This document shows, piece after piece, positions 32,861-45,405 of a DNA stretch of 64,000 nt. Source of the stretch: Vicinamibacteria bacterium. GTDB lineage: Bacteria; Acidobacteriota; Vicinamibacteria; Marinacidobacterales; Marinacidobacteraceae. The position numbers were made by a program, and so were the translations under genes. Positions within the stretch are counted from its first letter, which is position 1. Each line of letters opens with the position of its first letter. Below the pieces are notes generated by a model. That model saw only the letters and a program-made list of their open reading frames with translations, did no database searches and was not told the origin of the DNA. The stretch covers positions 1,664,001 through 1,728,000 of the forward strand of contig OY821641.1 in assembly GCA_963555995.3 (NCBI GenBank), given 5' to 3'.

Positions 32861-34333
32861 ATGTCTGAACGCCACCCGGAACCCGCTACGGAGAGCGAAG
32901 CGGCGCCGCCGCACGACCTCCCCCGGGTCGTCATCGTCGGCGCCGGGCAGACCGGCCGGGAGCTCGCGCGCCAACTCGCCGGCGAGCGGCGGGTGGTGGT
33001 CCTCGACACCGACCCGCAGAAGCTCGAACGCCTGCGCGAGACCGCTCCGCACCAGACGTTCGAGACCCTGACCCGCGACGGAACGAGCGCGCTGTCCCTG
33101 CGCGCCGCCGCCGGTGACGGCGCCGAGTGGGTGATCGCCGCCACCGACCAGGACGGGGTCAACATCGAGGTCTGCCGGGTCGCGGCCGCGCTGAGCCCGC
33201 GGCCGTCCACCGTCGGCACGCTGCGCGATTCCCACCGCGCCGGGCGGCTGCGCGCCACCGGCGCCCAGTGCATCGCCCGGCCGGGGGTGATCGCCAACCA
33301 GATCCGCAACCGGATCGAACGCTCCCACCAGGTCGAGACGTCGCTCGGTCTCGGCCGCGGCGAGATCCGCGAGATCCAGGTGCTCCCCACCTCGCCGGCG
33401 GTGAACGTGAAGCTCCGGGACCTCGGCGCCCGGAAGTGGCTGGTCGCGGGGATCTACCGGGGCGGGCGGTTCGTGGTCCCCGACGGCGACGCGGTGATCG
33501 AGGCCGGGGACCGGCTCCTCATCACCGGCGAGCCCGAGGTGGCGCCCGGCGCCGCCGAGTTCCTCCGCGAGGGGAAGTCCCTCTTCCCCCTCCAGTTCGG
33601 CAGCCACATCGTCGTCTTCGCCGAGCGCGAGCTCCCCGAGGTGGCCTGGCGGGAGGCCGAGTACCTGTTCCGCACCTCGCGGGCGCACCGTTTCCGGATC
33701 GTGGCGCCCGACGGCGTGGAACCGCCGCCGGACCTCGGCGTCCCCGCCGAGCGCCTGGCCCGGATCGTCCCCGGTGACGATGCCTTTGCGGCCGCCCGGC
33801 CCGATGCCGGCTGCGTGGTGATTGACCGGCGCGAGCCGTCCTTCCTTGCCCGGATCGGCCTCAACGCGGCGCGCTTCCTCGCCACCATGGCGCGGTTCTC
33901 CTGCCCGGTGCTGATCCCCGCCGCCAGCTTCCCCTGGGAGCGGCTGGTGATCCCGATCACCGACGTGGAGGCGACCCTCCGGGCGGCCGACACCGCGATC
34001 GGCCTCGGCCGCCAGTTCCGGATCCCCCTCGCCGCCGTCCTCGTCACCCCGCCGGCGTTCATCGGACGCGGCCTCGAAGGCACCGAGGACGTCGCGTCCG
34101 TCCTCGCCGCCATCGAGCGGATGGCCGACCTCTACCGCGTCCGGGTCCCCATCATCCGCGCCGAGGGCAACCCCCCCCGCCAACTCACCCGCCTCACCGG
34201 CCCCCGCGACCTCCTCGTCCTCGGCTACGACCAGGGCCACGCCGGCTCCTTCTTCCGCCCCGACCCCGCGGTCCACATGATGATCCGAGCCCGCGCCTCC
34301 GTCCTCGCCCTCCCCATCCCCACCCACCACTAG
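32861..34333 (+). CDS. TrkA-N/TrkA-C (RCK) protein fused to USP-like domains
   Basis: VVIVGAGQTG, IAATDQD..N, VPDGDAVIEAGDRL; C-terminal SCPVLI / ASVLAL USP-type ends. Confidence 0.8.
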   Translation: MSERHPEPATESEAAPPHDLPRVVIVGAGQTGRELARQLAGERRVVVLDTDPQKLERLRETAPHQTFETLTRDGTSALSLRAAAGDGAEWVIAATDQDGVNIEVCRVAAALSPRPSTVGTLRDSHRAGRLRATGAQCIARPGVIANQIRNRIERSHQVETSLGLGRGEIREIQVLPTSPAVNVKLRDLGARKWLVAGIYRGGRFVVPDGDAVIEAGDRLLITGEPEVAPGAAEFLREGKSLFPLQFGSHIVVFAERELPEVAWREAEYLFRTSRAHRFRIVAPDGVEPPPDLGVPAERLARIVPGDDAFAAARPDAGCVVIDRREPSFLARIGLNAARFLATMARFSCPVLIPAASFPWERLVIPITDVEATLRAADTAIGLGRQFRIPLAAVLVTPPAFIGRGLEGTEDVASVLAAIERMADLYRVRVPIIRAEGNPPRQLTRLTGPRDLLVLGYDQGHAGSFFRPDPAVHMMIRARASVLALPIPTHH

Positions 34334-36300
34334 CCGGAAGTTTCGGGCCCTGAATCGGGCCAAGCGACCGAGTGTCATGGAGTTAGGGGTGTTTCGGGAT
34401 GTAATATGTAGCCACTAATATGACTTGACATGAGTCGCTGTGTCCCTAATGCTACGAGGTATGCCGCCGCGAAAATACGCCGTCCACGTAGCCACAACAC
34501 AACGACACTACAAGGGCAAGACCTACCGATCCCACCTCCTGCGCCGAACCTTCCGCGAAAACGGGAAGGTCAAACACCAGACCCTCGGCAACCTCTCCCA
34601 CCTGCCCGATCCGGTCATCACTCTCATCCGCAGAGGACTCAAGGGCGAAACCCTCGTCGCACCCGACGACGCCTTCGACTGCCAGCGCAGCCTCCCCCAC
34701 GGACACGTCGCCGCCACCCTCGGATCCCTCCGACGCCTCGGACTCCACTCCCTCATCGCCCGCGCCCCCAGCCGGCTCCGCGATCTCGCCGTCGCCCTCA
34801 TCGTCGCCCGCGTCATCGACCCCCGCTCCAAGCTCGCCACCGCACGCGCCCTCAACCCACAAACCGCCGTCTCCTCCCTCGGAGAAATGCTCCAACTCGG
34901 CGACGTCGACCAGCACGAGCTCTACGACGCCATGGACTGGCTCCTCCGACGCCAGCCCGGCATCGAACAGCGTCTCGCCCGCCGCCACCTCGAAGACAAC
35001 ACCCTCGTCCTCTACGACCTCACCTCCACCTACGTGGAAGGAACCCACTGCCCCCTCGCACAGCGCGGCTACTCCCGCGACGGAAAGAAGAACAAGCTCC
35101 AGATCGTCTTCGGACTGCTCTGCTCCCCCGAGGGCTGCCCCATCGCCGTCGAGGTCTTCGAGGGCTCGACCAGCGACCCCAGGACCGTCGCCTCCCAGGT
35201 GCAAAAGCTCCGCACCCGCTTCGGCCTCGCCCGCGTCGTCCTGGTCGGCGATCGCGGCATGCTCACCTCCGCCCGCATCCGCGAGGACCTCGCCGGTGTC
35301 GAGGGGCTGCGCTGGATCACCGCCCTCCGCGCCCCCACCATCAAGAAACTCCTCGCCGACGGGACCGTGAACCCCTCCCTCTTCGACCAACGGGATCTCG
35401 CCGAGGTCACCTCCGACGACTTCCCCGGCGAGCGCCTCATCGTCTGCCGCAACCCCCGCCTCGCCGCCGAGCGCCGCCGTAAGCGCAACGAACTCCTCGG
35501 CGCCACCGAAGCTCTTCTCGAACCCATCCAGGCGGCCACCCAACGCGAACGGCGCCCCCTCCGCGGAAAGGATCACATCGGCGTCCGCGTCGGCAAGGTC
35601 ATCGACCGCTACAAGGTCGCCAAGCACTTCCAGACCGACATCACCGACGACTCCTTCTCCTTCGAACGGCTCTGCGAACAGATCGCCACCGAAGAACAAC
35701 TCGACGGCCTCTACGTCATCCGCTCCAACGTCGAGCCCGAGCGCCTCGACGCCCCCCAAACCGTCCGCGCCTACAAGAACCTCTCCCGCGTCGAGCGCGC
35801 CTTCCGCTCCCTCAAATCCGTCGACCTCAAGGTCAGACCGATCCACCACCGACGCTCCGACCGCGTCCGCGCCCACGTCTTCCTCTGCATGCTCGCCTAC
35901 TACGTCGAGTGGCACATGCGAAACGACCTCGCAACCCTCCTCTTCGACGACCACCACCCCGAAGCCGCCGAATCCCTCCGGGACTCCGTCGTCGAACCCG
36001 CCCAGCGCTCGCCCGCCGCCCAGAAGAAGGCCGCCACCAAGCGCACTCACGACGGCCTCCCCGTCCAATCCTTCCGGTCCCTCCTCGCCGATCTCGGCAC
36101 CCTCACCCGAAACACCATGCGGCTCAACGACGCCGAAACCACCTTCACTCTCTACGCCAACCCCACCCCCGTCCAGCAACGATCCCTCGATCTACTCCAC
36201 GTCTCACACCGAATGTAGCCACTACACGACAACACCCAAATCCCACAACTCACTCAAAATACGGGCCTTACACGAAATCAGGCCCGAAACTTCCGGCTAG
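34330..36300 (+). mobile_element. IS1634-family insertion sequence
   Basis: Perfect 20-bp terminal inverted repeat CTAGCCGGAAGTTTCGGGCC, possibly a 16-bp IR plus a CTAG target duplication; encloses a transposase. Confidence 0.92.
34461..36218 (+). CDS. IS1634-family DDE transposase
   Basis: RENGKVKHQT, LYDLTSTY.EG, GYSRD, VGDRGM, YKNLSRVERAFRSLKS, RVRAHVFLCMLAY; exact start uncertain (34440-34461). Confidence 0.93.
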   Translation: MPPRKYAVHVATTQRHYKGKTYRSHLLRRTFRENGKVKHQTLGNLSHLPDPVITLIRRGLKGETLVAPDDAFDCQRSLPHGHVAATLGSLRRLGLHSLIARAPSRLRDLAVALIVARVIDPRSKLATARALNPQTAVSSLGEMLQLGDVDQHELYDAMDWLLRRQPGIEQRLARRHLEDNTLVLYDLTSTYVEGTHCPLAQRGYSRDGKKNKLQIVFGLLCSPEGCPIAVEVFEGSTSDPRTVASQVQKLRTRFGLARVVLVGDRGMLTSARIREDLAGVEGLRWITALRAPTIKKLLADGTVNPSLFDQRDLAEVTSDDFPGERLIVCRNPRLAAERRRKRNELLGATEALLEPIQAATQRERRPLRGKDHIGVRVGKVIDRYKVAKHFQTDITDDSFSFERLCEQIATEEQLDGLYVIRSNVEPERLDAPQTVRAYKNLSRVERAFRSLKSVDLKVRPIHHRRSDRVRAHVFLCMLAYYVEWHMRNDLATLLFDDHHPEAAESLRDSVVEPAQRSPAAQKKAATKRTHDGLPVQSFRSLLADLGTLTRNTMRLNDAETTFTLYANPTPVQQRSLDLLHVSHRM

Positions 36301-36326
36301 CTGACCGGGATGGCGCCGCCGGCCGG

Positions 36327-36350
36327 GGAGCGCCGGTGTTCACACCGGCA
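36327..36350 (+). repeat. REP (GTGT variant), left boundary of the island
   Basis: GGAGCGCCGGTGTTCACACCGGCA, perfect inverse of 45357-45380. Confidence 0.9.
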
Positions 36351-36408
36351 CCGTCCCCCGCAGGGGGACGAATTCCCAACGTGACGCGCCCTCACGGCGC
36401 AACGGCTT

Positions 36409-36564
36409 GGAGCGCCGGCTTCAGCCGGCACAGCCCGCCGCAGGCGGGCGAAGGGATGGACCGTATCCGTGCCGATGGGCCACCGCCCGGAACATCCGAC
36501 ACCACGGCGATTCGCCCTTCCGCCGCGCTCCGCGCAGCGGGTGCCGGCTGAAGCCGGCGCTCCC
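36409..36564. repeat. Second REPIN family (inverted GGAGCGCCGGCTTCAGCCGGCAC pair)
   Basis: Perfect inverted ends; the left ~100 bp recurs degenerately at 39811-39910. Confidence 0.85.
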
Positions 36565-36581
36565 AGCCCACGCGCTACCGG

Positions 36582-36989
36582 GATCATGCCGCGATCCGTC
36601 GCCCATCATGCCCCGATCCGATCGCGCCGTTTCGCACCGATCATGCCTCGATCCACCGGCCCATCATGCCTCGATCCGAGGCGATCATGCTCCGATCCAC
36701 GCGGTTTTCGGCCTCGATCATGCCTCGATCCGTTCCAGAGTCCGGCAGCGACAATCTCCGGCTGCATGGACGAGGCGGACCGATCCAAGACCGAAAAGAA
36801 CGCTCGGAAAGCCGAAATCAGCCGAATTCGAGCCGGTTTCGGCACTCTCTGACCGATTCCAGCCCGTCTGAACCGACTCGGCGCGATCCGCATTCCGACC
36901 GTTTCCGGACGCCGATCATGCCCCGATCCGCGCCGATCATGCCCCGATCCGCCAACATGCCTCGATCCAGCGGGATCATGCCTCGATCC
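36582..36989 (+). repeat. Array of ten 16-bp direct repeats, consensus GATCATGCCYCGATCC
   Basis: Copies start at 36582, 36604, 36639, 36662, 36683, 36716, 36914, 36935, 36953 and 36974. Confidence 0.9.
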
Positions 36990-37224
36990 GTCTCGCTGGC
37001 GAGCCTCGAGCACCATGCAGTGGATGCAGTCCGGAAGCCTCGGGTCAGCGAAGCCGGGGCCGCTGCCGTCCGCCCGGAGAGTGACGGGGACCGGCGTGGA
37101 GACCGCCGGGCCGGGTTCAGGGCGACAGCAGGCGAAGGACCGCAACGGTGATGCCCACACCTGGCCCGCTCGATCAGCCCCCGCGACCTGCTCGTCCTCC
37201 GCTACGATCAGGCGGCGGCGCTGG

Positions 37225-37380
37225 CGGCATAACGCCGTCACTTCCACCGTGACCAATGCTCGTGCAGAAGCCATCAACTCCCGCATCCAGTGGCTCAAAT
37301 AAGATGGCTTGCGGATACCGCAACCGCGCCCGCTTCCGCGAGGCGATCTACTTCCACCTACGCGGATTGGACCCCCGTGA
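37225..37380 (+). pseudogene. ISL3-family transposase C-terminal remnant (frameshifted)
   Basis: TNARAEAINSRIQWLK, then a 1-nt shift to KMACGYRNRARFREAIYFHLRGLD, the typical ISL3 C-terminus. Confidence 0.8.
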
Positions 37381-37401
37381 CGCGCTGATATTGCCACTAC
37401 T

Positions 37402-38316
37402 TCAGAGCTGTTCTTGCGGGTGTCGCCGCCGCAGCGGCTGACTCAACCTCACGTAGCGTCTGGGGTCCTGGAACTCCCACGACGACGTAGCCAGATGCAG
37501 TTGTAAGTCCGCCAAGAACAAGTTCAATAACCTGCCCGCGGCGACCCCAGGATCGGAGTGCGTTTCCTGAAAGGTGGTCCAGCAGTTGGATACGGCGGCG
37601 TCATTCTCCTCTCGATAGACCTCTGCTTGGACACCAAACGTCGCTTGCCCGTTCTTCATCCGATGAGGTGCACAACTGGCCCCGCCACGCTCACTGTCAA
37701 GAATCAATACCCACGCATCCTCGGGTGGTATACCGATTCCTCCGACGTTCTTCGCCAGGTTTCGCAAATCACAACTTCCCATCCCCAACGCAATGAGGAA
37801 CTTGTAACACGAATTGCGCCACTTTCTGCCTGTAACTGGAGCCGTCAAGTCATCCAGAGATGTGTCCGGCGAGGGGCGTCCGAATCGATTTGAGTTTTTG
37901 ATGAGAAGACCGTCCTGCATTCTCTCCATGTCTTGAATCATCTCGACATAGCTCTCCAACACGCGAGCGTCGTGGTACCAGCTGCTCTTGACCTCACCAA
38001 CTGCCGCCACGCATTCCGCTCGCACGAGCTCCGTTGCACCCTTGTCGCGGCTATACATCGTTGCTGTCGGAAGATCGCGAACAACGATGATGTCGATCTG
38101 CTTGGATTTCCTTCCGTCGGCACGAACAACGTGTCCTTCGGTTACGCGATACTGACTTCCTACCACGCCTGCGATCCAGTCCCGGACGGCCTTCTCGGGT
38201 CCATCTCCTAGCGCACGTATGTTGTCCTTGCCTCCTGTCGCGCTGGCCCTCGCCCGCGCGACAAAGAAGTCCTCGGCTATCGCTGCGTACAGTTTGTCTA
38301 CGTCGTACGAGTGCAT
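37402..38316 (-). CDS. DUF6602-like PD-(D/E)xK nuclease-domain protein
   Basis: LGDGPE, Y.VTEGHVV, SKQIDIIVV, AECVAAVGEVKS; lower GC than the backbone. Confidence 0.72.
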   Translation of the reverse strand: MHSYDVDKLYAAIAEDFFVARARASATGGKDNIRALGDGPEKAVRDWIAGVVGSQYRVTEGHVVRADGRKSKQIDIIVVRDLPTATMYSRDKGATELVRAECVAAVGEVKSSWYHDARVLESYVEMIQDMERMQDGLLIKNSNRFGRPSPDTSLDDLTAPVTGRKWRNSCYKFLIALGMGSCDLRNLAKNVGGIGIPPEDAWVLILDSERGGASCAPHRMKNGQATFGVQAEVYREENDAAVSNCWTTFQETHSDPGVAAGRLLNLFLADLQLHLATSSWEFQDPRRYVRLSQPLRRRHPQEQL

Positions 38317-38327
38317 CGCGGAATACC

Positions 38328-38456
38328 CTAGCTCGTGTTTGTCGGCGAGGAAAGAAGGGCGAAGATGCCCGCAGCCCGGCCTGTTGCGTTCAGGTTGATG
38401 ATCGCGCTCGTGTCCGCGACGATCCCACGCCACGACTCACGCAGTGAGTGCGACAC
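38328..38456 (-). pseudogene. Truncated PIN-domain gene (42 codons)
   Basis: GTG start overlaps the ImmA stop; VSHSLRESWRGIVADTSAIINLNATG is a PIN N-terminus, ending at a premature TAG. Confidence 0.65.
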
Positions 38457-39603
38457 GTCCCGCAGCTTCGAGCTTCTCCTCCTCGGCGCCCTCGAGAAGC
38501 TCGCGAATCTCCACCCGGCCGAGGTCGAGCAGACTGGCGAGCTGGCCCTCGCTGTACAGATCGCGCGTCCATGCCTCTCTCACGAGCAGGGCGAGACGCT
38601 GAGGCACCCGGCCTCCGGCGGCCGGCTGCATCCATCGTGCGTCGGGTGGACGCCCGATGACCTTTTCGCTCTGAGCGTCCGTGATTCCACCGTTCTCCTG
38701 GAACCAATCCCACGTCCCCCGCCGCACCAGCCGCAAGTCTTCCAGCCGTCGCACGATGGCTTCTCGCGACACCGCGAATGCATGCGCCAGCAGGATGACA
38801 TGGCGCCGCGTCAGGTGGGACTGTCCGGCGGTGATTTCCTCGAACCGCTGGCGCACGGCTCGACCTGGAGTCAGAAACGACCTCGCGAAAGCGGATGCGT
38901 ACCGCGCTTCCCGTGACCGCGAAGCGTCCTGTTCCACGAGTAGTGCGGGTTCCCCCCGGCTCGTGATGAGACGCCCGAGTTCGTGAGCGCCGGTCTGGGC
39001 AATCCGCCCCACTGGATGATTCGCGTTGAGCAGTACGCAAGCGCCTGCGGCCTCGGTGTACGCGAACAGCCCGGAAATCGCCTCCGCCATCCCTCGCACA
39101 TAGACCCGCATCCCGACCTGCAACTCCAGGAACGGCACCATGTCGAGAACCGGCCCCGACCCCAGTCCGAACCAGGACCGCAGCTCCTGGGCATCCTCTT
39201 CCGCCTGCGTCGCCACGTCGCCCGGACGAATCGGCCTCTCGCTCGGATACCGATGCTTGCGCAGGACTCCGAGAATGTTCTCAAGCTCCACCTCCGCACT
39301 GACGAGCCTGTTCAACAACTGTGCGGCGTCCTCCCGGGCTGGTTCGGAACTCTTCGGGAGCTTCCGGAACCGGGGTACGAGATCCAGATGAACGGCCTCG
39401 CGCCGCAGGATTGCGTTTACGGAGACTCCATAGAGACGGGCGAGCTTCTGGATCTCCTCACTGCGCACCCGGCGGTCCCCCTTTTCGATGGCGACGAGGG
39501 TCGTACGGGCAACCTGGATCTGCTCCGCCGCGTCACTCTGCCGAAGCCCCGCCGACTCGCGCACCGTCCGGAGGCGCTGGCCGATCTGCCGATTCGAGAG
39601 CAT
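38437..39603 (-). CDS. XRE HTH + ImmA/IrrE (DUF955) metallopeptidase-like regulator
   Basis: IGQRLRTVRESAGLRQ..AA HTH; ISGLF, LLNANHP; AHELGR in place of HExxH. Confidence 0.88.
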   Translation of the reverse strand: MLSNRQIGQRLRTVRESAGLRQSDAAEQIQVARTTLVAIEKGDRRVRSEEIQKLARLYGVSVNAILRREAVHLDLVPRFRKLPKSSEPAREDAAQLLNRLVSAEVELENILGVLRKHRYPSERPIRPGDVATQAEEDAQELRSWFGLGSGPVLDMVPFLELQVGMRVYVRGMAEAISGLFAYTEAAGACVLLNANHPVGRIAQTGAHELGRLITSRGEPALLVEQDASRSREARYASAFARSFLTPGRAVRQRFEEITAGQSHLTRRHVILLAHAFAVSREAIVRRLEDLRLVRRGTWDWFQENGGITDAQSEKVIGRPPDARWMQPAAGGRVPQRLALLVREAWTRDLYSEGQLASLLDLGRVEIRELLEGAEEEKLEAAGRVALTA

Positions 39604-39733
39604 GTCGCCTCCTGACGCAGTCGCGGTGACGGCGGCAAGCTCCGATGCCGTCCGTCGTTTGTGGCCTATGTCAGCAGGTTGATTCACTTGCCCGACTTTG
39701 TCAACCCAACTCGGGAGATCGCGCCGGCGGCCT

Positions 39734-39910
39734 GGAACGCCGGTCTCCAGACCGGCACGCGGCCCGCAGGGCCGCAGAGCGCGCGGCGCTCGCCCGTCGG
39801 GAAGACGCGTACGGCTCGGAACTCCAGCTCCCGCCGGCCCAACTCGCCGCAGGCCGGCGACGGGATGAACCTTGTCCGTGGAGATGCGCCACCGCCCGCA
39901 ACATCCGGCG
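39734..39910 (+). repeat. REP plus degenerate copy of the 36402-36500 REPIN arm
   Basis: GGAACGCCGGTCTCCAGACCGGCAC followed by GCCGCAGG..GGGATG.ACC...CCACCGCCCG.AACATCCG. Confidence 0.75.
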
Positions 39911-40399
39911 CTTGACATCCTGCGCACCCCGCGAGTCATGAAAACGGCGGAGACGGCTGGAGCACCGGGACTGCATGTTCACGGCAACCGGGCCCTGAGG
40001 GGCTTGCGACAGGCTGCTCGGACTCGGTTTGGTGGCCATCCCCACCGGCCTGCCGGCGGCGGCTCTCATGAAGGGAACTGCAGAAGATCGAAGCGGACGC
40101 TCGATCGAAGAACCTGTCCGGCATCCCTGACGGACTCCCTCCCGGCCGGGGTGGTCACGACGGGAGCCGGGGTGGGAATGACCGGAGCTCGGGGCGGATT
40201 GACCGGAGCTTTGACCATTGCTCGGACGCATAGGTCAAGCGGGACAGGCACTCCCCGGCAGCGGAAATCCCGATTGCGGCGAGCGTCGAGTGGCCGGACT
40301 CCAAATCCGGGGGTCCGGTTCGTGGCCGGGCGCGGAGAGCCACTCGGACCGGATGCGCAGGTTCATGGCCTCCGCGCCCATCATTCGCGCCGAATCAGC

Positions 40400-41356
40400 C
40401 TATACGAACGTCTCTACATACCGCGGGTGATACCGCAGGAGTTCCTTGTAAGTGCTGATCTCGTCCGGCCCGATACCCAGCGCGTGGAGTTGTCCAATCT
40501 GTTTCGCATTCTTCCTAGGTGCGGTTGCCGCGAGGTCGAGGAGGCCACGTTCCTTCTCCGTGTAGTTGAACTGTCCAATGCTGTACAGATCGTTCGCGCT
40601 CGCTGCGAGAAAGGGCATCCGCTCCTCGAGGCGCCCCACCAACCGTTCACACCGATCTCGACTGTCGAATACGCCGCCCAGAGTGATCATTTCGACGCTG
40701 TCCCGATACCGGACCCGAAAGAACATCCGGAACACTCCATCCTTTCGTCCCCTGAATCCTCTCCGAAGAGCCGACGAAAGGACCTTATCCGCCGCCTGCC
40801 AGAACCCGGAGTCCTCCACATCCGCCACTTTAAGGGAAACAGCGAAGTCTCCCAGCGTCGTTCTCAATTCGGCGAGTCGGTACGCCGTCCCTTCCCGTCG
40901 CAAGTGTTTGGGTGGACGCGCGTCCACGGTAACGAACACGAAGTCTCCAGCGGTGGCCTTCCTTCCAAGAGAAACTACGTCATTCGTTATGCGAGGTCCG
41001 ATGCACGCATCGTAGTCGAGCCAATAGATGCTTCCTCCTGTCGTCCGATCCTCCAGAAGGAAGTCCCCGACACTCCGGTTGTTGACGCTTATGAAACCGA
41101 ACGGACGGTTGAACTCCGCCCTGTGGAACATCTGACGGTCATGTTCCAGGCTCACCATCCGCTCGATCCGGAAGTACTTGTGCATGATCCTGAAATCGTA
41201 AAACCGGTTGCCTCCCATCCCGACATATCGGTACGAAGAAAGGTCGAATCCTACCTCCGTCGCCGTCGCCAGGCAATCCACCATCATGCGTCGCTCGCGC
41301 TGCTTCGCGGGCCGAAGATCGTAAGAGATGCCCCTAGCGCTCGAGTCTGACGCCAT
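40400..41356 (-). CDS. Putative SAM-dependent methyltransferase-fold protein (uncharacterised O-methyltransferase-like family)
   Basis: SYDLRPAKQRERRM, YVGMGG (motif I-like), SLEHD (motif II-like), IYWLDYD; abuts the ATPase stop. Confidence 0.65.
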   Translation of the reverse strand: MASDSSARGISYDLRPAKQRERRMMVDCLATATEVGFDLSSYRYVGMGGNRFYDFRIMHKYFRIERMVSLEHDRQMFHRAEFNRPFGFISVNNRSVGDFLLEDRTTGGSIYWLDYDACIGPRITNDVVSLGRKATAGDFVFVTVDARPPKHLRREGTAYRLAELRTTLGDFAVSLKVADVEDSGFWQAADKVLSSALRRGFRGRKDGVFRMFFRVRYRDSVEMITLGGVFDSRDRCERLVGRLEERMPFLAASANDLYSIGQFNYTEKERGLLDLAATAPRKNAKQIGQLHALGIGPDEISTYKELLRYHPRYVETFV

Positions 41357-42691
41357 CTAGTCCTCGCGGACTTCGTTACGAAGAAAGAAACGAAACGTAT
41401 GTCGACCCACCTGAGCCCCGCTCATATCGGGTCGTGACAAGTATCTGGCAATCTTGAGGACTTGGCTCCATTTGGCGTTGTATTGAATCTTGATGTTGTC
41501 ATCCGTCATCGAAACAGGCGGTTTTTGGAATGGCCTAGCTTCTCCAACGGACGCACGGATGGCGTCCACTGGTTTCTCCCCGTCAAGCCCCAGCTCCGCC
41601 AGCGTAAAGTCGGATCCCTTAGTGGGATAGCGGCTGTCCAGAAAAGCGATAACGGACCTACCCACCGTGCCCATGCACAGCTTTGTGGACTGCCAGACGG
41701 CACTATCCTCGTTGATCCTCGACTTCGTCGTATCCCATGGCAAGTGGTCCGGGTATCGGGACACGAAATGAACCATCCCCAGGAAAGGCCGGTGTTTGGG
41801 CTGGAAGATGGGCAGGCCGTTGTTCTGCCATCCGGTCAACGCGGTCTTGTCCGCACTGATGACGGCTCTCCCGTTGCAGAAGACAAACCAACCGGCTCCG
41901 GCATCGCGGTACTGCTTGCCCTCGGGCGTACCCAGACCTGCCAGCACCGTATACGTCACACCCTCTTCGGAACCGCTGTCCCTGGCTGTGTGTTTGCTGA
42001 AGCCCAACTCCGTGGACGTGACTCTCTCGCCATTAACGAAAATTCGAACGAATTTCTTCAGGAAATAGGCATACGTGGCGGCGATACGGGTCTTTAGATT
42101 GGCCTCGAACGCCTCGTCCAGACGGCTGGCCGTTTCGTGATGGAGCTCGGTAATGACGATTCTCGTGCCACACTCGTTGGCGCTGGCCGCTGGTCGCTCG
42201 GAAATCGGAAATTGCCAGCGGGGCTCATTCTTCTTCGACCACTCATCCACATCCAGATCGAGTTCAAAGCCACCCGATTCATGATCCGATTCGACCTTCA
42301 CGCGGCGCCCGGCTTTGAAAAACGCCCGCTTGAGCCCGAGTCCATAGACCGACAGCCGGTCGGTGTCACTGTCTGTATCGGCGGAACGTCCGAATCGGAA
42401 CACATGTTTCGACGCTGCGGTCAGCGAGATGCCAGGGGCCGTGTCCGTGATGGAAATCCGATCACTTGAGAAAACGATCCTGATGTTCGTTTGCGGCTGG
42501 ACCGTGGCGTCATCGAGCACCTTGACATAGTCCTCAGCCGTCTGGAGGCGGTCCGCGAATGGCGCCACGGCAGCGTTGACCGAGTTGTCAATCAGGTCGA
42601 GAAAGGCAGCTTCCAGCGAAATGTCCCGCGTCAGGAGCGAGATGAAGAGCCGTTTTTCCGGGCTCGCGTCGGCGAAGTCCGTAGCAGTCAT
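41357..42691 (-). CDS. GHKL/MORC-type ATPase
   Basis: N-box DLIDNSVNA, G1 DTAPG, G2 YGLGLKRA, G3 GTRIVI; S5-like GWFVFCNGR and LPWDTTK. Confidence 0.85.
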   Translation of the reverse strand: MTATDFADASPEKRLFISLLTRDISLEAAFLDLIDNSVNAAVAPFADRLQTAEDYVKVLDDATVQPQTNIRIVFSSDRISITDTAPGISLTAASKHVFRFGRSADTDSDTDRLSVYGLGLKRAFFKAGRRVKVESDHESGGFELDLDVDEWSKKNEPRWQFPISERPAASANECGTRIVITELHHETASRLDEAFEANLKTRIAATYAYFLKKFVRIFVNGERVTSTELGFSKHTARDSGSEEGVTYTVLAGLGTPEGKQYRDAGAGWFVFCNGRAVISADKTALTGWQNNGLPIFQPKHRPFLGMVHFVSRYPDHLPWDTTKSRINEDSAVWQSTKLCMGTVGRSVIAFLDSRYPTKGSDFTLAELGLDGEKPVDAIRASVGEARPFQKPPVSMTDDNIKIQYNAKWSQVLKIARYLSRPDMSGAQVGRHTFRFFLRNEVRED

Positions 42692-42704
42692 TGGGTAGTT
42701 CCGG

Positions 42705-43622
42705 CTAGTGCATCGCGAAGTGAGGCGGCGCAAGCGCCACCGATTCGTTGGGCGTCGGCACTCGGACAGGACGATCCGGGCGATACCGAAGGGATTCGCT
42801 GGCGAGCGCCTGAAGGCGCGCGGTGGCGAGTTTCGTGTACTTGTCCGAGATGTCGCACCCGATGAAGTCACGCTTCTCGAGGAGCGCGGCGGCAGCGGTC
42901 GTTCCCGATCCCAGGAATGGATCCGCGGCAGTGCCGTCTTCGGGACACAGCGCCACGATCAGCCGTCTTGCGAGCGCGATGGGAAACTGGCACGGGTGGT
43001 CCGTCTTCTCCACGTGATTGGCCTTGACGTTCGGGATGTCCCAGACGGCACCGATGTCCCAGACGTCGCCCGGGTTCTTCCCGAGCGGGTTCCCGCTGAA
43101 CTTGCCCTTGTTCGGGCCCTTGTAGTGTTTCTTGCCCGGATACTTCTGCGGAACGCGTGCGGCATCCAGGTCGAAGAAGTAGTCATCGCCCTTGGTGTAC
43201 CACAGGATCGTTTCGTGCCGGCCGCTGAACCGGCGGCGCAGGTGCGTGCCGTGGGAGAACGTCCAGATGATGCGATTGCGGAGGACGAACGATGCTCCGC
43301 GGTCCATCGCACGCGCCACGGTGTGATCGAGGGGAAGCAGTTGGTTGTCCCGGACATGGTTGCCCAACTGCCAACACAGGCTGCCGCCGGGCCGCAACAC
43401 CTTGCCGATCACCGGGATCAGCGCGTCAATCTTCTCCTCGAAGTCCGAGGCATCGGTGGATTCGTCGTATTCCTTGCCGATGAAGTAGGGTGGAGACGTC
43501 AGCAGGAGACTGATGGATTCGTCGGGAATCGTGCCGAGGAATTCGAGGCAGTCGGCGGTCGCGATGGTCGCGGTCCTTCCGTTGAAGGACGTCGTGGAGA
43601 TGTTCGGTGGGCTGGGAAGCAT
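42705..43622 (-). CDS. Beta-class N4-cytosine DNA methyltransferase (M.BglII-like)
   Basis: TSPPY motif IV before DPFLGSGTT motif I; SGRHETILW, GKNPGDVW, HPCQFP. Confidence 0.92.
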   Translation of the reverse strand: MLPSPPNISTTSFNGRTATIATADCLEFLGTIPDESISLLLTSPPYFIGKEYDESTDASDFEEKIDALIPVIGKVLRPGGSLCWQLGNHVRDNQLLPLDHTVARAMDRGASFVLRNRIIWTFSHGTHLRRRFSGRHETILWYTKGDDYFFDLDAARVPQKYPGKKHYKGPNKGKFSGNPLGKNPGDVWDIGAVWDIPNVKANHVEKTDHPCQFPIALARRLIVALCPEDGTAADPFLGSGTTAAAALLEKRDFIGCDISDKYTKLATARLQALASESLRYRPDRPVRVPTPNESVALAPPHFAMH

Positions 43623-43935
43623 CGTCCGGGGCGGCGGGACGAAGTGTAGGGCATGACTTCGGATGGAGGGGCCATCCGGTGATTCCGGCCGGCCGTCGGC
43701 GTGCTCGCGCTGGTCCGCTGACCGTCGTGATGGCCGTGTGCGGCCTGGGTGGCCGGCCGAAAGCGCCACTCGTCAAGGCAGACACGCGCTGCGGGGTAAC
43801 ACAGCGCGTGGCGTGGCCGATTCCGGTGGCGTGGTCTCGACCGGGAGCAGCGGGCCGGCGCCCGGACGGACCGGGACGTGGGTCCCGCGTTCACGGGGAG
43901 GAGCGCCTTCGGGGCGGGTTTCACGCTGCCGCGCG

Positions 43936-43959
43936 ATGCCAGCCAGAGGCTGGCGCTCC
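43936..43959 (-). repeat. REP (GGCC variant with compensatory changes)
   Basis: ATGCCAGCC-AGA-GGCTGGCGCTCC. Confidence 0.75.
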
Positions 43960-44070
43960 GACGCGGACCTCCCCCCGGAGACCGGCGTTAGCGACCGGAC
44001 CTCCATCCCGTTGGGACGAACCGGAGCGACACCGTGTTGCACGGCCCGGGGATGGCGACCCGACATCGGT

Positions 44071-44090
44071 TGCCATAATCGGTTATGGCA
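44071..44090. promoter_or_regulatory. Operator palindrome upstream of vapBC
   Basis: TGCCATAA-TCGG-TTATGGCA perfect 8-bp inverted repeat overlapping TTGCCA. Confidence 0.6.
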
Positions 44091-44122
44091 TACCTGTTAT
44101 CCTCATGGCTCAGCGGGACGCG

Positions 44123-44344
44123 ATGAAGGAAACGACCACGAAAATCACCGTCCATATCCCGACGGACCTTCTGCAGCAGGCGCGCTCGATTACGGGCGAA
44201 GGCGTGACGAGCACCGTGCGCCGTGGTCTTCGGCAGATCGCCTCCGTCCACGCGCAACAGGAGCTGCGGAAACTGCGCGGGCGGGTGCCGATCTCGCTGG
44301 ATCTTGAGAAGCTGCGCGAAGATCGGGATCCGGACCACCGGTGA
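44123..44344 (+). CDS. VapB-like antitoxin
   Basis: TKITVHIPTDLLQQARSITG...TVRRGL; overlaps the PIN gene (GTGA); start could be 44105. Confidence 0.8.
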   Translation: MKETTTKITVHIPTDLLQQARSITGEGVTSTVRRGLRQIASVHAQQELRKLRGRVPISLDLEKLREDRDPDHR

Positions 44345-44715
44345 TCGCCGCCGATTCGAGTTCCCTGAGCGCGCTGTTTCGGGGTGACGACGGCCCCGAT
44401 GTCGAGCTGCTGGACCAGGCGCTGGCCCAGGGGATGGTCGTGTTACCGCCGGTCGTACTGACGGAGATCCTGAGCTATCCGGTCCTCGAGTCGGAGGTGG
44501 CGGACCTGATCCGCGATCTTTCCCTGCTGGAGACTCATCCGGGCTTCTGGGAGCGTGCCGCCCGGCTGCGCGCGGGCATCCTGATGCGGGGCCTCCGGGC
44601 GCGGCTGGCGGATACCCTGATCTCCCAGAGCTGCCTGGATCACGAAGTGCCGCTGATCACTCGCGACAGGGACTTTCGGCACTTCGCGGAGCATTCCGGC
44701 CTGGTTCTCCTCTAG
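44341..44715 (+). CDS. vapC: VapC PIN-domain toxin
   Basis: IAADSS, VLTEILS, LADTLI, LITRDRDFRHF. Confidence 0.9.
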   Translation: MIAADSSSLSALFRGDDGPDVELLDQALAQGMVVLPPVVLTEILSYPVLESEVADLIRDLSLLETHPGFWERAARLRAGILMRGLRARLADTLISQSCLDHEVPLITRDRDFRHFAEHSGLVLL

Positions 44716-44817
44716 CGGACCCACGATCCCCGGGCGCCGGCGGCGCTCGACGAGGACCGGAGCGACACCGGCGGACCGGAGCGGATGCGCTACGCTAGCC
44801 TGCGGTTCGGGGAACAC

Positions 44818-45108
44818 ATGCCAGAGATCACGCTGCGAGCGAATTTCCACCGTGAACGCGATCAGTGGATCGGATGGTGTCCGGACCTCGATGTGACCAC
44901 CCAGGGCGACACGCGCGGGGAAGCCGAAGAGAACCTGCGGGAAGCCGTCAATCTCTTCCTCGAAACGTGTCAAGCGATGGGAACCTTGGAAGACGTGTTG
45001 CGCGAGGCCGGACTGCTCCCCCCACCCGAGGTGAAGACCTTCCGGATTCCCGTGCCCTGGCTCGTGGATTCGCAGAAGGACACCCGTGCCTCGGCTCCAG
45101 CCCGTTAG
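44818..45108 (+). CDS. hicB: HicB family antitoxin
   Basis: WCPDLDVTTQGDTRGEAEENLREAVNLFLE. Confidence 0.9.
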   Translation: MPEITLRANFHRERDQWIGWCPDLDVTTQGDTRGEAEENLREAVNLFLETCQAMGTLEDVLREAGLLPPPEVKTFRIPVPWLVDSQKDTRASAPAR

Positions 45109-45322
45109 GGTCGAAATCCTGATCAGGGTCTTCGAGGCCGATGGGTGGGCGCGCGCCCGACAGCGGGGTTCGCACTTGAGCATGACCAAACCGGGCCACA
45201 AGCGTCCGGTGGTCATCATCACGAGCAAGAAGGAAGCGGAGACCTGGCTGATCCGAACAAATCTCAGAACAGCCCGGATGAGCCGGGACCGGTACTTCGC
45301 ACTCCTGGAACAAGTTCGCTAG
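45086..45322 (+). CDS. hicA: HicA family toxin
   Basis: GW..ARQRGSHLSMTKPG, the dsRBD-fold GSH motif. Confidence 0.88.
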   Translation: MPRLQPVRVEILIRVFEADGWARARQRGSHLSMTKPGHKRPVVIITSKKEAETWLIRTNLRTARMSRDRYFALLEQVR

Positions 45323-45356
45323 CCCGGACTGCTTTTCGCTGCGCTGCGCGCACCGA

Positions 45357-45380
45357 TGCCGGTGTGAACACCGGCGCTCC
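45357..45380 (-). repeat. REP (GTGT variant), right boundary of the island
   Basis: TGCCGGTGTGAACACCGGCGCTCC. Confidence 0.9.
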
Positions 45381-45405
45381 TGCTGGCGACCTGCTGGCGC
45401 CTTGA

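Follow-up and report, generated by a model that had tools for sequence, protein, structure and literature searches.

A widespread pair of a MORC-type ATPase and a PF20553 SAM-fold protein with an exchangeable DNA methylase: a candidate anti-phage cassette without a recognised nuclease

Introduction

In plants and animals, MORC ATPases act as silencers of transposons, and a prediction made in 2008 is said to derive these eukaryotic proteins from bacterial restriction-modification (R-M) helpers. The usual view of bacterial operons with MORC is that they work as nuclease machinery. In the text of Iyer et al. 2008, some neighbourhoods of MORC with a methylase or of MORC with a nuclease, a minority, were without a helicase (PMC2292703). 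The subject of this work was a small three-gene version without a nuclease, found in a 64,000-nt stretch of a Vicinamibacteria genome (assembly GCA_963555995.3, contig OY821641.1, positions 1,664,001 to 1,728,000; the whole stretch is called the window). The cassette encodes a DNA methylase, a MORC-type ATPase and, as the constant partner of the ATPase, a methyltransferase-fold enzyme of the large uncharacterised family PF20553, whose profile reached 1,890 clusters at 50% identity.

A full-text literature search revealed no description of the cassette; accession-style terms may miss text, and the supplements of Iyer et al. 2008 and of the P2-hotspot paper cited below may list it. The texts of PMC12137116, PMC12839542 (no GHKL or MORC), PMC7824862, PMC9523054 and 10.64898/2026.09.30.754977 dealt, as far as they go, with other systems. 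No PADLOC or NCBIfam model named such a cassette, which a first-pass annotation of the window had put forward as a candidate undescribed system.

Results

Organization of the Cassette

The cassette consisted of three co-oriented open reading frames (ORFs) on the minus strand, with intergenic gaps of 13 nt and then 0 nt; the tight packing given in the first-pass annotation was borne out. The first gene (43622-42705, 305 aa) encoded a beta-class amino DNA methyltransferase (methylase), with matches to PF01555 (E 6e-48) and PADLOC MTase_II (1.5e-60). The second (42691-41357, 444 aa) encoded a stand-alone MORC-type GHKL+S5 ATPase (PF13589, E 1e-11), and the third (41356-40400, 318 aa) a class I S-adenosylmethionine (SAM)-fold protein of family PF20553 (Methyltransf_35; Pfam E 2e-62). 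The translations contained the TSPPY, N-box and GMGG motifs. The lower guanine-cytosine (GC) content noted earlier was also found: 0.63, 0.57 and 0.58 for the methylase, ATPase and PF20553 genes against 0.70 for the genome, with third-position GC of 0.82, 0.70 and 0.69 against 0.94-0.95 in flanking core genes. A promoter scan found no promoter. In NCBIfam, nothing lay above cut-off for any of the three proteins, and PADLOC and NCBIfam gave no match for the PF20553 protein or for 99 of its homologues.

Conservation of the ATPase and PF20553 Pair

Sixty-seven loci were examined: 22 from GTDB, 33 from metagenomes and 12 distant loci drawn from sampled genomes, plasmids, a phage and E. coli. The ATPase and the PF20553 protein occurred together in 63/67, the misses being three contig ends and one 3' remnant, and distant members with 24-29% identity kept the pairing. 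In 53/67 loci, the pair was linked to a methylase from one of four cytosine-type families (within 500 bp in 48/67), which lay upstream of the pair, downstream of it or convergent with it. These 53 methylases comprised 34 BglII-like SPPY enzymes, 8 long SPPY enzymes, 8 C5 enzymes with TLRAGT (the type linked in L077) and 3 BamHI-like DPPF enzymes. Among the 14 loci with no linked methylase, 11 were metagenome pieces that were short or had less than 3 kb on at least one side; the others were L052, which ran into a helicase cassette, L066 and L074.

Tree distances were compared for 29 of 31 loci, L053 and L022 being dropped as truncated or broken. The ATPase and PF20553 distances were strongly correlated (rho 0.80, 0/2000 permutations), whereas the correlation of the ATPase or PF20553 with the methylase was weak (rho 0.17, 24/2000), and 7/12 and 8/13 supported splits conflicted with the methylase tree. 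The fixed core is the ATPase with the PF20553 protein, and the methylase is swapped among cassettes. The triad claimed at first as a unit was conserved over several phyla, the fixed unit being the pair and the methylase being exchangeable. Because the methylase is exchangeable, with two further amino families and a C5 family elsewhere, N4-cytosine chemistry is a local property of the window copy. The reshuffling fits coupling by way of a DNA mark and not by way of a protein complex.

The distribution of the family was patchy: it occurred in 5/401, 4/401 and 2/401 genomes of three phylum samples, seeds included, and in 0/14 controls. Copies broken by frameshifts or insertion sequence (IS) elements were found in L006, L009, L015, L022 and L067.

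The PF20553 Protein

The match of the third protein to PF20553 scored 211.6 bits against a gathering threshold of 27 and covered model positions 2-307 of 309. The protein had 231 close homologues, and the best 150 listed of the profile clusters did not exceed 356 aa. The AlphaFold2 (AF2) model (mean predicted local distance difference test, pLDDT, of 88) had a class I SAM fold. In both fold searches, Foldseek included, the tRNA methylase Trm1 ranked first (Z 15.1, root mean square deviation (rmsd) 4.1, 223 aligned, residues 5-256), and the next rows had Z 13.5. PF20553 and Trm1 shared 10% identity and differed in the C-terminal part; a viral fold library returned generic methyltransferases only. 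The methyltransferase fold assigned to 40400-41356 in the first-pass annotation was therefore recovered by the AlphaFold and Foldseek check, with no restriction endonuclease fold; the protein called uncharacterised there already belongs to a Pfam family.

Among 126 diverse sequences, K18, R22, G46, G48, D54, W112, D114, Y217, D219 and E269 were invariant, R15 and D116 were nearly invariant, and E71 was kept in 96%. The class I SAM hallmarks were present, namely the glycine motif I (G46, G48), an acidic motif II and the Rossmann-like fold. Strand 4 was followed by an acidic motif, and a basic motif in the N-terminal part was conserved. Judged by the model, the protein is a SAM-fold enzyme and not a restriction-nuclease fold, and it is likely a nucleic-acid methyltransferase. 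The apparently intact SAM pocket and the conservation of the basic motif suggest that the protein is catalytically active on a fixed substrate, probably a nucleic acid. No nuclease fold was found in the fold searches, which barely covered PF20553 residues 254-318 and ATPase residues 363-444.

Feature-level look-alikes of the PF20553 protein (P0001) in the ESM Atlas were phage-dominated clusters of 301-384 aa with scores of 0.90-0.92. PF28273 PP_RS20740 was another; all are only possible distant relatives of PF20553.

The MORC-type ATPase

At least 655 homologues of the ATPase were found. Its AF2 model (pLDDT 86) showed a GHKL domain followed by an S5 domain, which is the MORC architecture, and fold matches extended over approximately residues 10-390. 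The ranking was MORC3 (Z 20.6, rmsd 3.6, 286 aligned), MORC2 (19.6), SMCHD1 (19.1) and MutL (14.3); a sequence search of the PDB gave no real match. The MORC motif GhXhhpXXRhl was present in the S5 domain as GWFVFCNGRAV, in which the first Gly is G267 and the Arg is R275, and it agreed with the residue classes of PMC2292703.

In an alignment of 114 sequences, D32, N36, D83, G87, G117, R275 and K323 were invariant, and the nucleotide-binding positions N36, D83, the G117 region and T176 were conserved. GHKL ATPases usually have a catalytic Glu at the motif I position held here by Asp32. This Asp was found in 114/114 aligned ATPases and in 56/61 locus ORFs, distant members included, the other five being unmatched and none having Glu. 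The N-box reported earlier is thus present, with an Asp in place of the usual catalytic residue.

The ATPase ended in a conserved 45-residue C-terminal extension with a strand-helix-helix pattern that, as a lead, may recall ribbon-helix-helix dimers. Pfam and PADLOC showed the ATPase only, and no nuclease domain was recognised in the 444 aa. The PADLOC score for MzaB was marginal (E 0.028), and the NCBIfam MzaB score was 22.7 bits against a cut-off of 850.

The DNA Methylase

The methylase carried TSPPY at 42-46 before DPFLGSG at 234-240 and is predicted to make N4-methylcytosine (m4C); its top PDB sequence matches included adenine enzymes, e.g., M.RsrI. It was 43-47% identical to methylases paired with BglII/BstYI- or BamHI-family nucleases, the plasmid methylases adjoining annotated BglII/BstYI nucleases being 43-46% identical. 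In a midpoint-rooted tree of 43 BglII-like methylases (L040, L054 and L015 excluded as duplicates), the 31 pair-linked methylases without a BglII-like neighbour formed one side of a branch with 100/97 support. The other side held 12 enzymes: ten from plasmids, whose partners were BglII/BstYI nucleases, DGQHR or unknown proteins, and those of two loci in which the pair stands together with a retained BglII-like nuclease.

On this tree, the methylase belongs to a clade dedicated to the cassette and sister to the BglII/BstYI R-M methylases. Since these sisters are partnered by nucleases, the pair appears to occupy an exchangeable nuclease or effector slot, in agreement with the position proposed for it in the first-pass annotation. 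Four BglII-like and one BamHI-like nuclease queries had no match in the window or the source genome. The BglII, BstYI and BamHI methylases make m4C on the C of a GATC core. As 37/53 linked methylases were BglII- or BamHI-like, a GATC-core mark is predicted for the clade.

As observations on related methylase genes, a DGQHR-domain protein lay directly after the SPPY methylase in L083, L085 and L036, another replacement in the nuclease slot. The source genome had at least four other beta-class methylase genes and was strongly depleted in CAGCTG (observed/expected, O/E, 0.08), GTCGAC (0.13), ATCGAT (0.26) and AAGCTT (0.28), a pattern that suggests long-standing R-M systems with those sites.

Genomic Settings of the Cassette in Other Genomes

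In the accessory region of the Pf phage PfAC20, the ATPase, the PF20553 protein and a C5 methylase were the first three ORFs. The text of the PfAC20 paper gave only a cytosine methyltransferase there, called incomplete, and its sister phages carry ShosTA, Kiwa, Gabija and Avs (PMC11878078). In an E. coli P2-like prophage, the triad with a C5 methylase (locus tags CRT46_RS12050-12060) lay between gpA and gpQ, an interval described as a defence hotspot in a paper whose main text does not mention GHKL, Hsp90 or methylases (bioRxiv 10.1101/2021.01.21.427644). Homologues of the cassette thus sit in known prophage defence slots, in line with the defence-island check suggested in the first-pass annotation. 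With the PfAC20 pair as the blastn query, E. coli gave no match, and another copy of the pair matched 49/5,426 E. coli genomes. Among phage records, 1/50,697 carried the cassette. The pair on a Microvirga plasmid (L066) was inside a class 1 DISARM system, and about ten triads had housekeeping or unclassified genes on either side, where Pfam recognised no nuclease.

A cassette of an unknown 440-470 aa protein, an SNF2 helicase and a NOV_C (DUF3883) nuclease recurred in L019, L029, L032, L042, L052 and L078, where a BglII-like nuclease and an SPPY methylase were frequent companions; in L078 it was without the ATPase pair. This SNF2+NOV_C cassette was not found in the window, PfAC20 or the P2-like copy. 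The cassettes of L004 and L075, which have different methylase families, were both directly after a pyruvate dehydrogenase E1 gene, and those of L030 and L055 directly after lepA; these sites are possible insertion hotspots.

The Insertion and Neighbouring Genes in the Window

The cassette was carried by an insertion of approximately 11 kb (34340-45400), with contents assigned by Pfam, that was absent from the 8/8 congeners examined. The flanking genes adjoined, lying within 250 bp of each other, in 6/8, and other inserts of 1.6-2.4 kb were present in 2/8. The cassette ATPase was not found in 15/15 other genomes of the genus. The other contents of the insertion (IS transposase, DUF6602, HTH-IrrE/M78, PIN and HicAB genes) are context and lie outside the system.

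The flanking REP (repetitive extragenic palindromic) repeats described earlier are real. The REP-like repeat downstream of the cassette (39700-39920) had 533 blastn hits in the source genome and was 81% alike to 36402-36498; the upstream repeat (43625-44060) had 52 hits and was densest at 43800-43975 (approximately 45-50 hits). Both repeats are genome-wide and not island-specific.

A DDE_Tnp_1 transposase gene (34440-36218, +) marking the left side of the island was bracketed by 20-nt perfect inverted repeats (34330-34349 and 36281-36300), and a related element occupied the same site in congener G1213. Inside the island, 36568-36992 was a GATC-rich array of 21-nt GATCATGCCTCGATCC-like repeats. 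The DUF6602 protein (37402-38433, -) had NucC/PD-(D/E)xK similarity (PADLOC E 1e-14 to 5e-9), and its gene lay directly downstream of the HTH-IrrE gene, the two perhaps forming a separate defence unit. The DUF6602 nuclease had been put forward as an accessory of the cassette; this was rejected, as tblastn gave no match in any related locus examined (L001-L022, L023-L064 and 7 further loci). The HTH_3 + Peptidase_M78 protein (38437-39573, -) resembled RmrA/CapH-CapP regulators. The HTH-IrrE Pfam match was near only one other cassette locus, L001, in which a protein with the same domains was 1.7 kb from the cassette. On the right (44123-45322, +), a PIN toxin gene with a 73-aa partner upstream was followed by a HicB-HicA-like pair; both units had relatives elsewhere in congeners.

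Discussion

The cassette is mobile and probably has an anti-phage or other defence role of some kind. More specifically, it may be a nuclease-free, R-M-like system in which methylation protects self against non-self; this is the reading we favour, and it could go either way. The methylase would mark host cytosines with m4C, probably in a GATC-core hexamer like the BglII, BstYI and BamHI methylases. The ATPase would clamp DNA as a dimer closed by ATP, as its eukaryotic MORC counterparts do, and the Glu-to-Asp change may slow hydrolysis and prolong the clamped state. A clamp on unmarked DNA would activate or deliver the PF20553 protein, which would use SAM to methylate a base of a nucleic acid (guanine at N2, on the model of Trm1), and this base methylation may stall phage replication or the infected cell. 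The methylases may be swappable because the pair would recognise nothing but the mark, without binding to the methylase. That the methylase makes m4C, that the other two proteins act as sensor and effector and that the cassette defends its carrier are all inferred. Methyl transfer as the damaging step is doubtful, and immunity by clamping and methylating in place of cutting, with MORC trapping unmarked DNA and a Trm1-like enzyme adding a blocking methyl, is put forward tentatively.

Several observations weigh against this methylation-protected scheme. A common target for the four unrelated methylase families is improbable, and a variable recognition domain is not obvious in either core protein. 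An intact-looking pair without a linked methylase stands beside dndBCDE (L074), and the pair inside DISARM (L066) has an NPPF (adenine-type) methylase as its neighbour and lies approximately 9 kb from an unrelated C5 enzyme. Nucleases lie near the pair in a number of loci (BglII-like in 5, BamHI-like in 1, HNH in 3 and SNF2+NOV_C in 5), as does Vsr in 2; the first-pass statement that there is no restriction endonuclease holds for the window, where none was recognised, and not for these BglII-like, BamHI-like, HNH and Vsr neighbours elsewhere. GATC-core hexamers were not depleted in the source genome (O/E 0.64-0.80 against a palindrome median of 0.81), although after a recent insertion depletion would not show either. 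Trm1 led the other methyltransferases by only 1.6 Z, and searching PDB sequences with two PF20553 profiles yielded neither a real match nor support for Trm1 kinship. The loci are also not independent (L039/L040, L051/L054 and five genomes of one Actinomycetota group), so that the locus counts, which include near-duplicates and close kin, overstate independence.

Were the pair a guard that watched the DNA-modification machinery (the SAM level or a phage methylase inhibitor) and triggered growth arrest, in the manner of PARIS, which guards anti-restriction proteins, the methylase would be a bait or the guarded enzyme and not a self mark. This is rather unlikely. The pair does insert into systems that already have effectors (DISARM, BglII- and BamHI-type R-M, SNF2/NOV_C) and tolerates four methylase families, and the SAM-binding motifs of PF20553 are intact; however, PF20553 has invariants beyond the SAM pocket (R15, K18, R22, Y217, D219, E269), as for a fixed-substrate enzyme, Dnd, a system independent of SAM, is the neighbour in one locus, and no separate toxic effector was found. 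A module without attack, in which the two methyltransferases and the ATPase lay down a double or hypermodified mark shielding or regulating the carrier DNA, would suit two SAM enzymes, no nuclease and carriage by prophages, and the look-alikes of PF20553 include phage clusters (0.90-0.92; leads only). Set against it are the single phage record among 50,697, with the cassette in an accessory slot otherwise occupied by defence systems, and the effectors that partner the sister lineages of the methylase; we consider it clearly unlikely.

It is improbable that the ATPase is a conventional MORC R-M helper in the sense of Iyer et al., loading or licensing a nuclease encoded elsewhere or hidden in the cassette proteins. 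No nuclease family is recurrent, and the PfAC20 and P2-like prophage triads are without such a gene, although nucleases or helicases adjoin the pair in a minority of loci; ATPase residues 363-444 and PF20553 residues 254-318, barely covered by the fold searches, could hide a domain, but are short and mostly helical, with few conserved acidic residues. The reading of the genes as chance neighbours in a defence island, with the methylase an orphan of a decayed BglII-type system, finds its one point in the weak congruence of the methylase tree with the pair; it is largely refuted by the methylase being within 500 bp in 48/67 loci in several orientations and by the dedicated clade, and is barely credible.

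If the methylation-protected scheme is true, the cassette would offer a new effector chemistry for anti-phage defence, a function for PF20553 and a minimal model of the reading of DNA methylation by MORC clamps. Were invaders clamped and methylated in place of being cut, as tentatively put forward above, PF20553 would be a new class of nucleic-acid methyltransferase effector (adding, e.g., N2-methylguanine), and the cassette a working prokaryotic counterpart of the eukaryotic MORC silencing of methylation-defined foreign DNA. Since natural copies are present in E. coli and Pseudomonas prophages, the cassette is testable at once.

Comparison with Known Systems

With Trm1, a tRNA guanine-N2 methyltransferase, the PF20553 protein shares the class I SAM fold and the acidic motif after strand 4; unlike Trm1, it has no PDB profile match, a different C-terminal part and a defence-type context. 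The cassette resembles Mza (mzaABCDE) and MORC-Z1-AIPR in having a GHKL ATPase and a cytosine methylase in a defence operon, with weak MzaB similarity, but is without Z1, PD-(D/E)xK and AIPR genes. Tiamat and type I-D Shedu (VcSduA) are likewise anti-phage GHKL ATPases, and DNA methylases are frequent neighbours of Tiamat; in both, a PD-(D/E)xK nuclease is fused, whereas the cassette ATPase has none, and no PADLOC model matched. The methylases of type II R-M systems (BglII/BstYI, BamHI) and that of the cassette share one beta-class lineage; in the cassette, the ATPase and the PF20553 protein replace the nuclease, and the methylase forms its own clade.

The closest systems are the prokaryotic MORC and paraMORC operons. 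As described in the text of PMC2292703, they share with the cassette the GHKL and S5 domains, the MORC motif, a sporadic spread and linkage mostly to cytosine methylases; in that text, paraMORC1 is without the MORC motif, has a C-terminal extension and co-occurs with MORC or HNH. The cassette ATPase has an extension too, with HNH near 3 loci and a second GHKL protein in L037, but its MORC motif is present. Unlike MORC R-M operons, the cassette has no fixed helicase or nuclease and has Asp for the catalytic Glu. The SFII helicase and nuclease of the main MORC R-M types are represented by SNF2+NOV_C in 5 pair loci and the DISARM SNF2 in L066. The obligate Trm1-like SAM-fold partner is unmentioned in the text of PMC2292703, the supplement of which may list such loci. 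The cassette is a widespread, unnamed variant of MORC-linked R-M-like systems.

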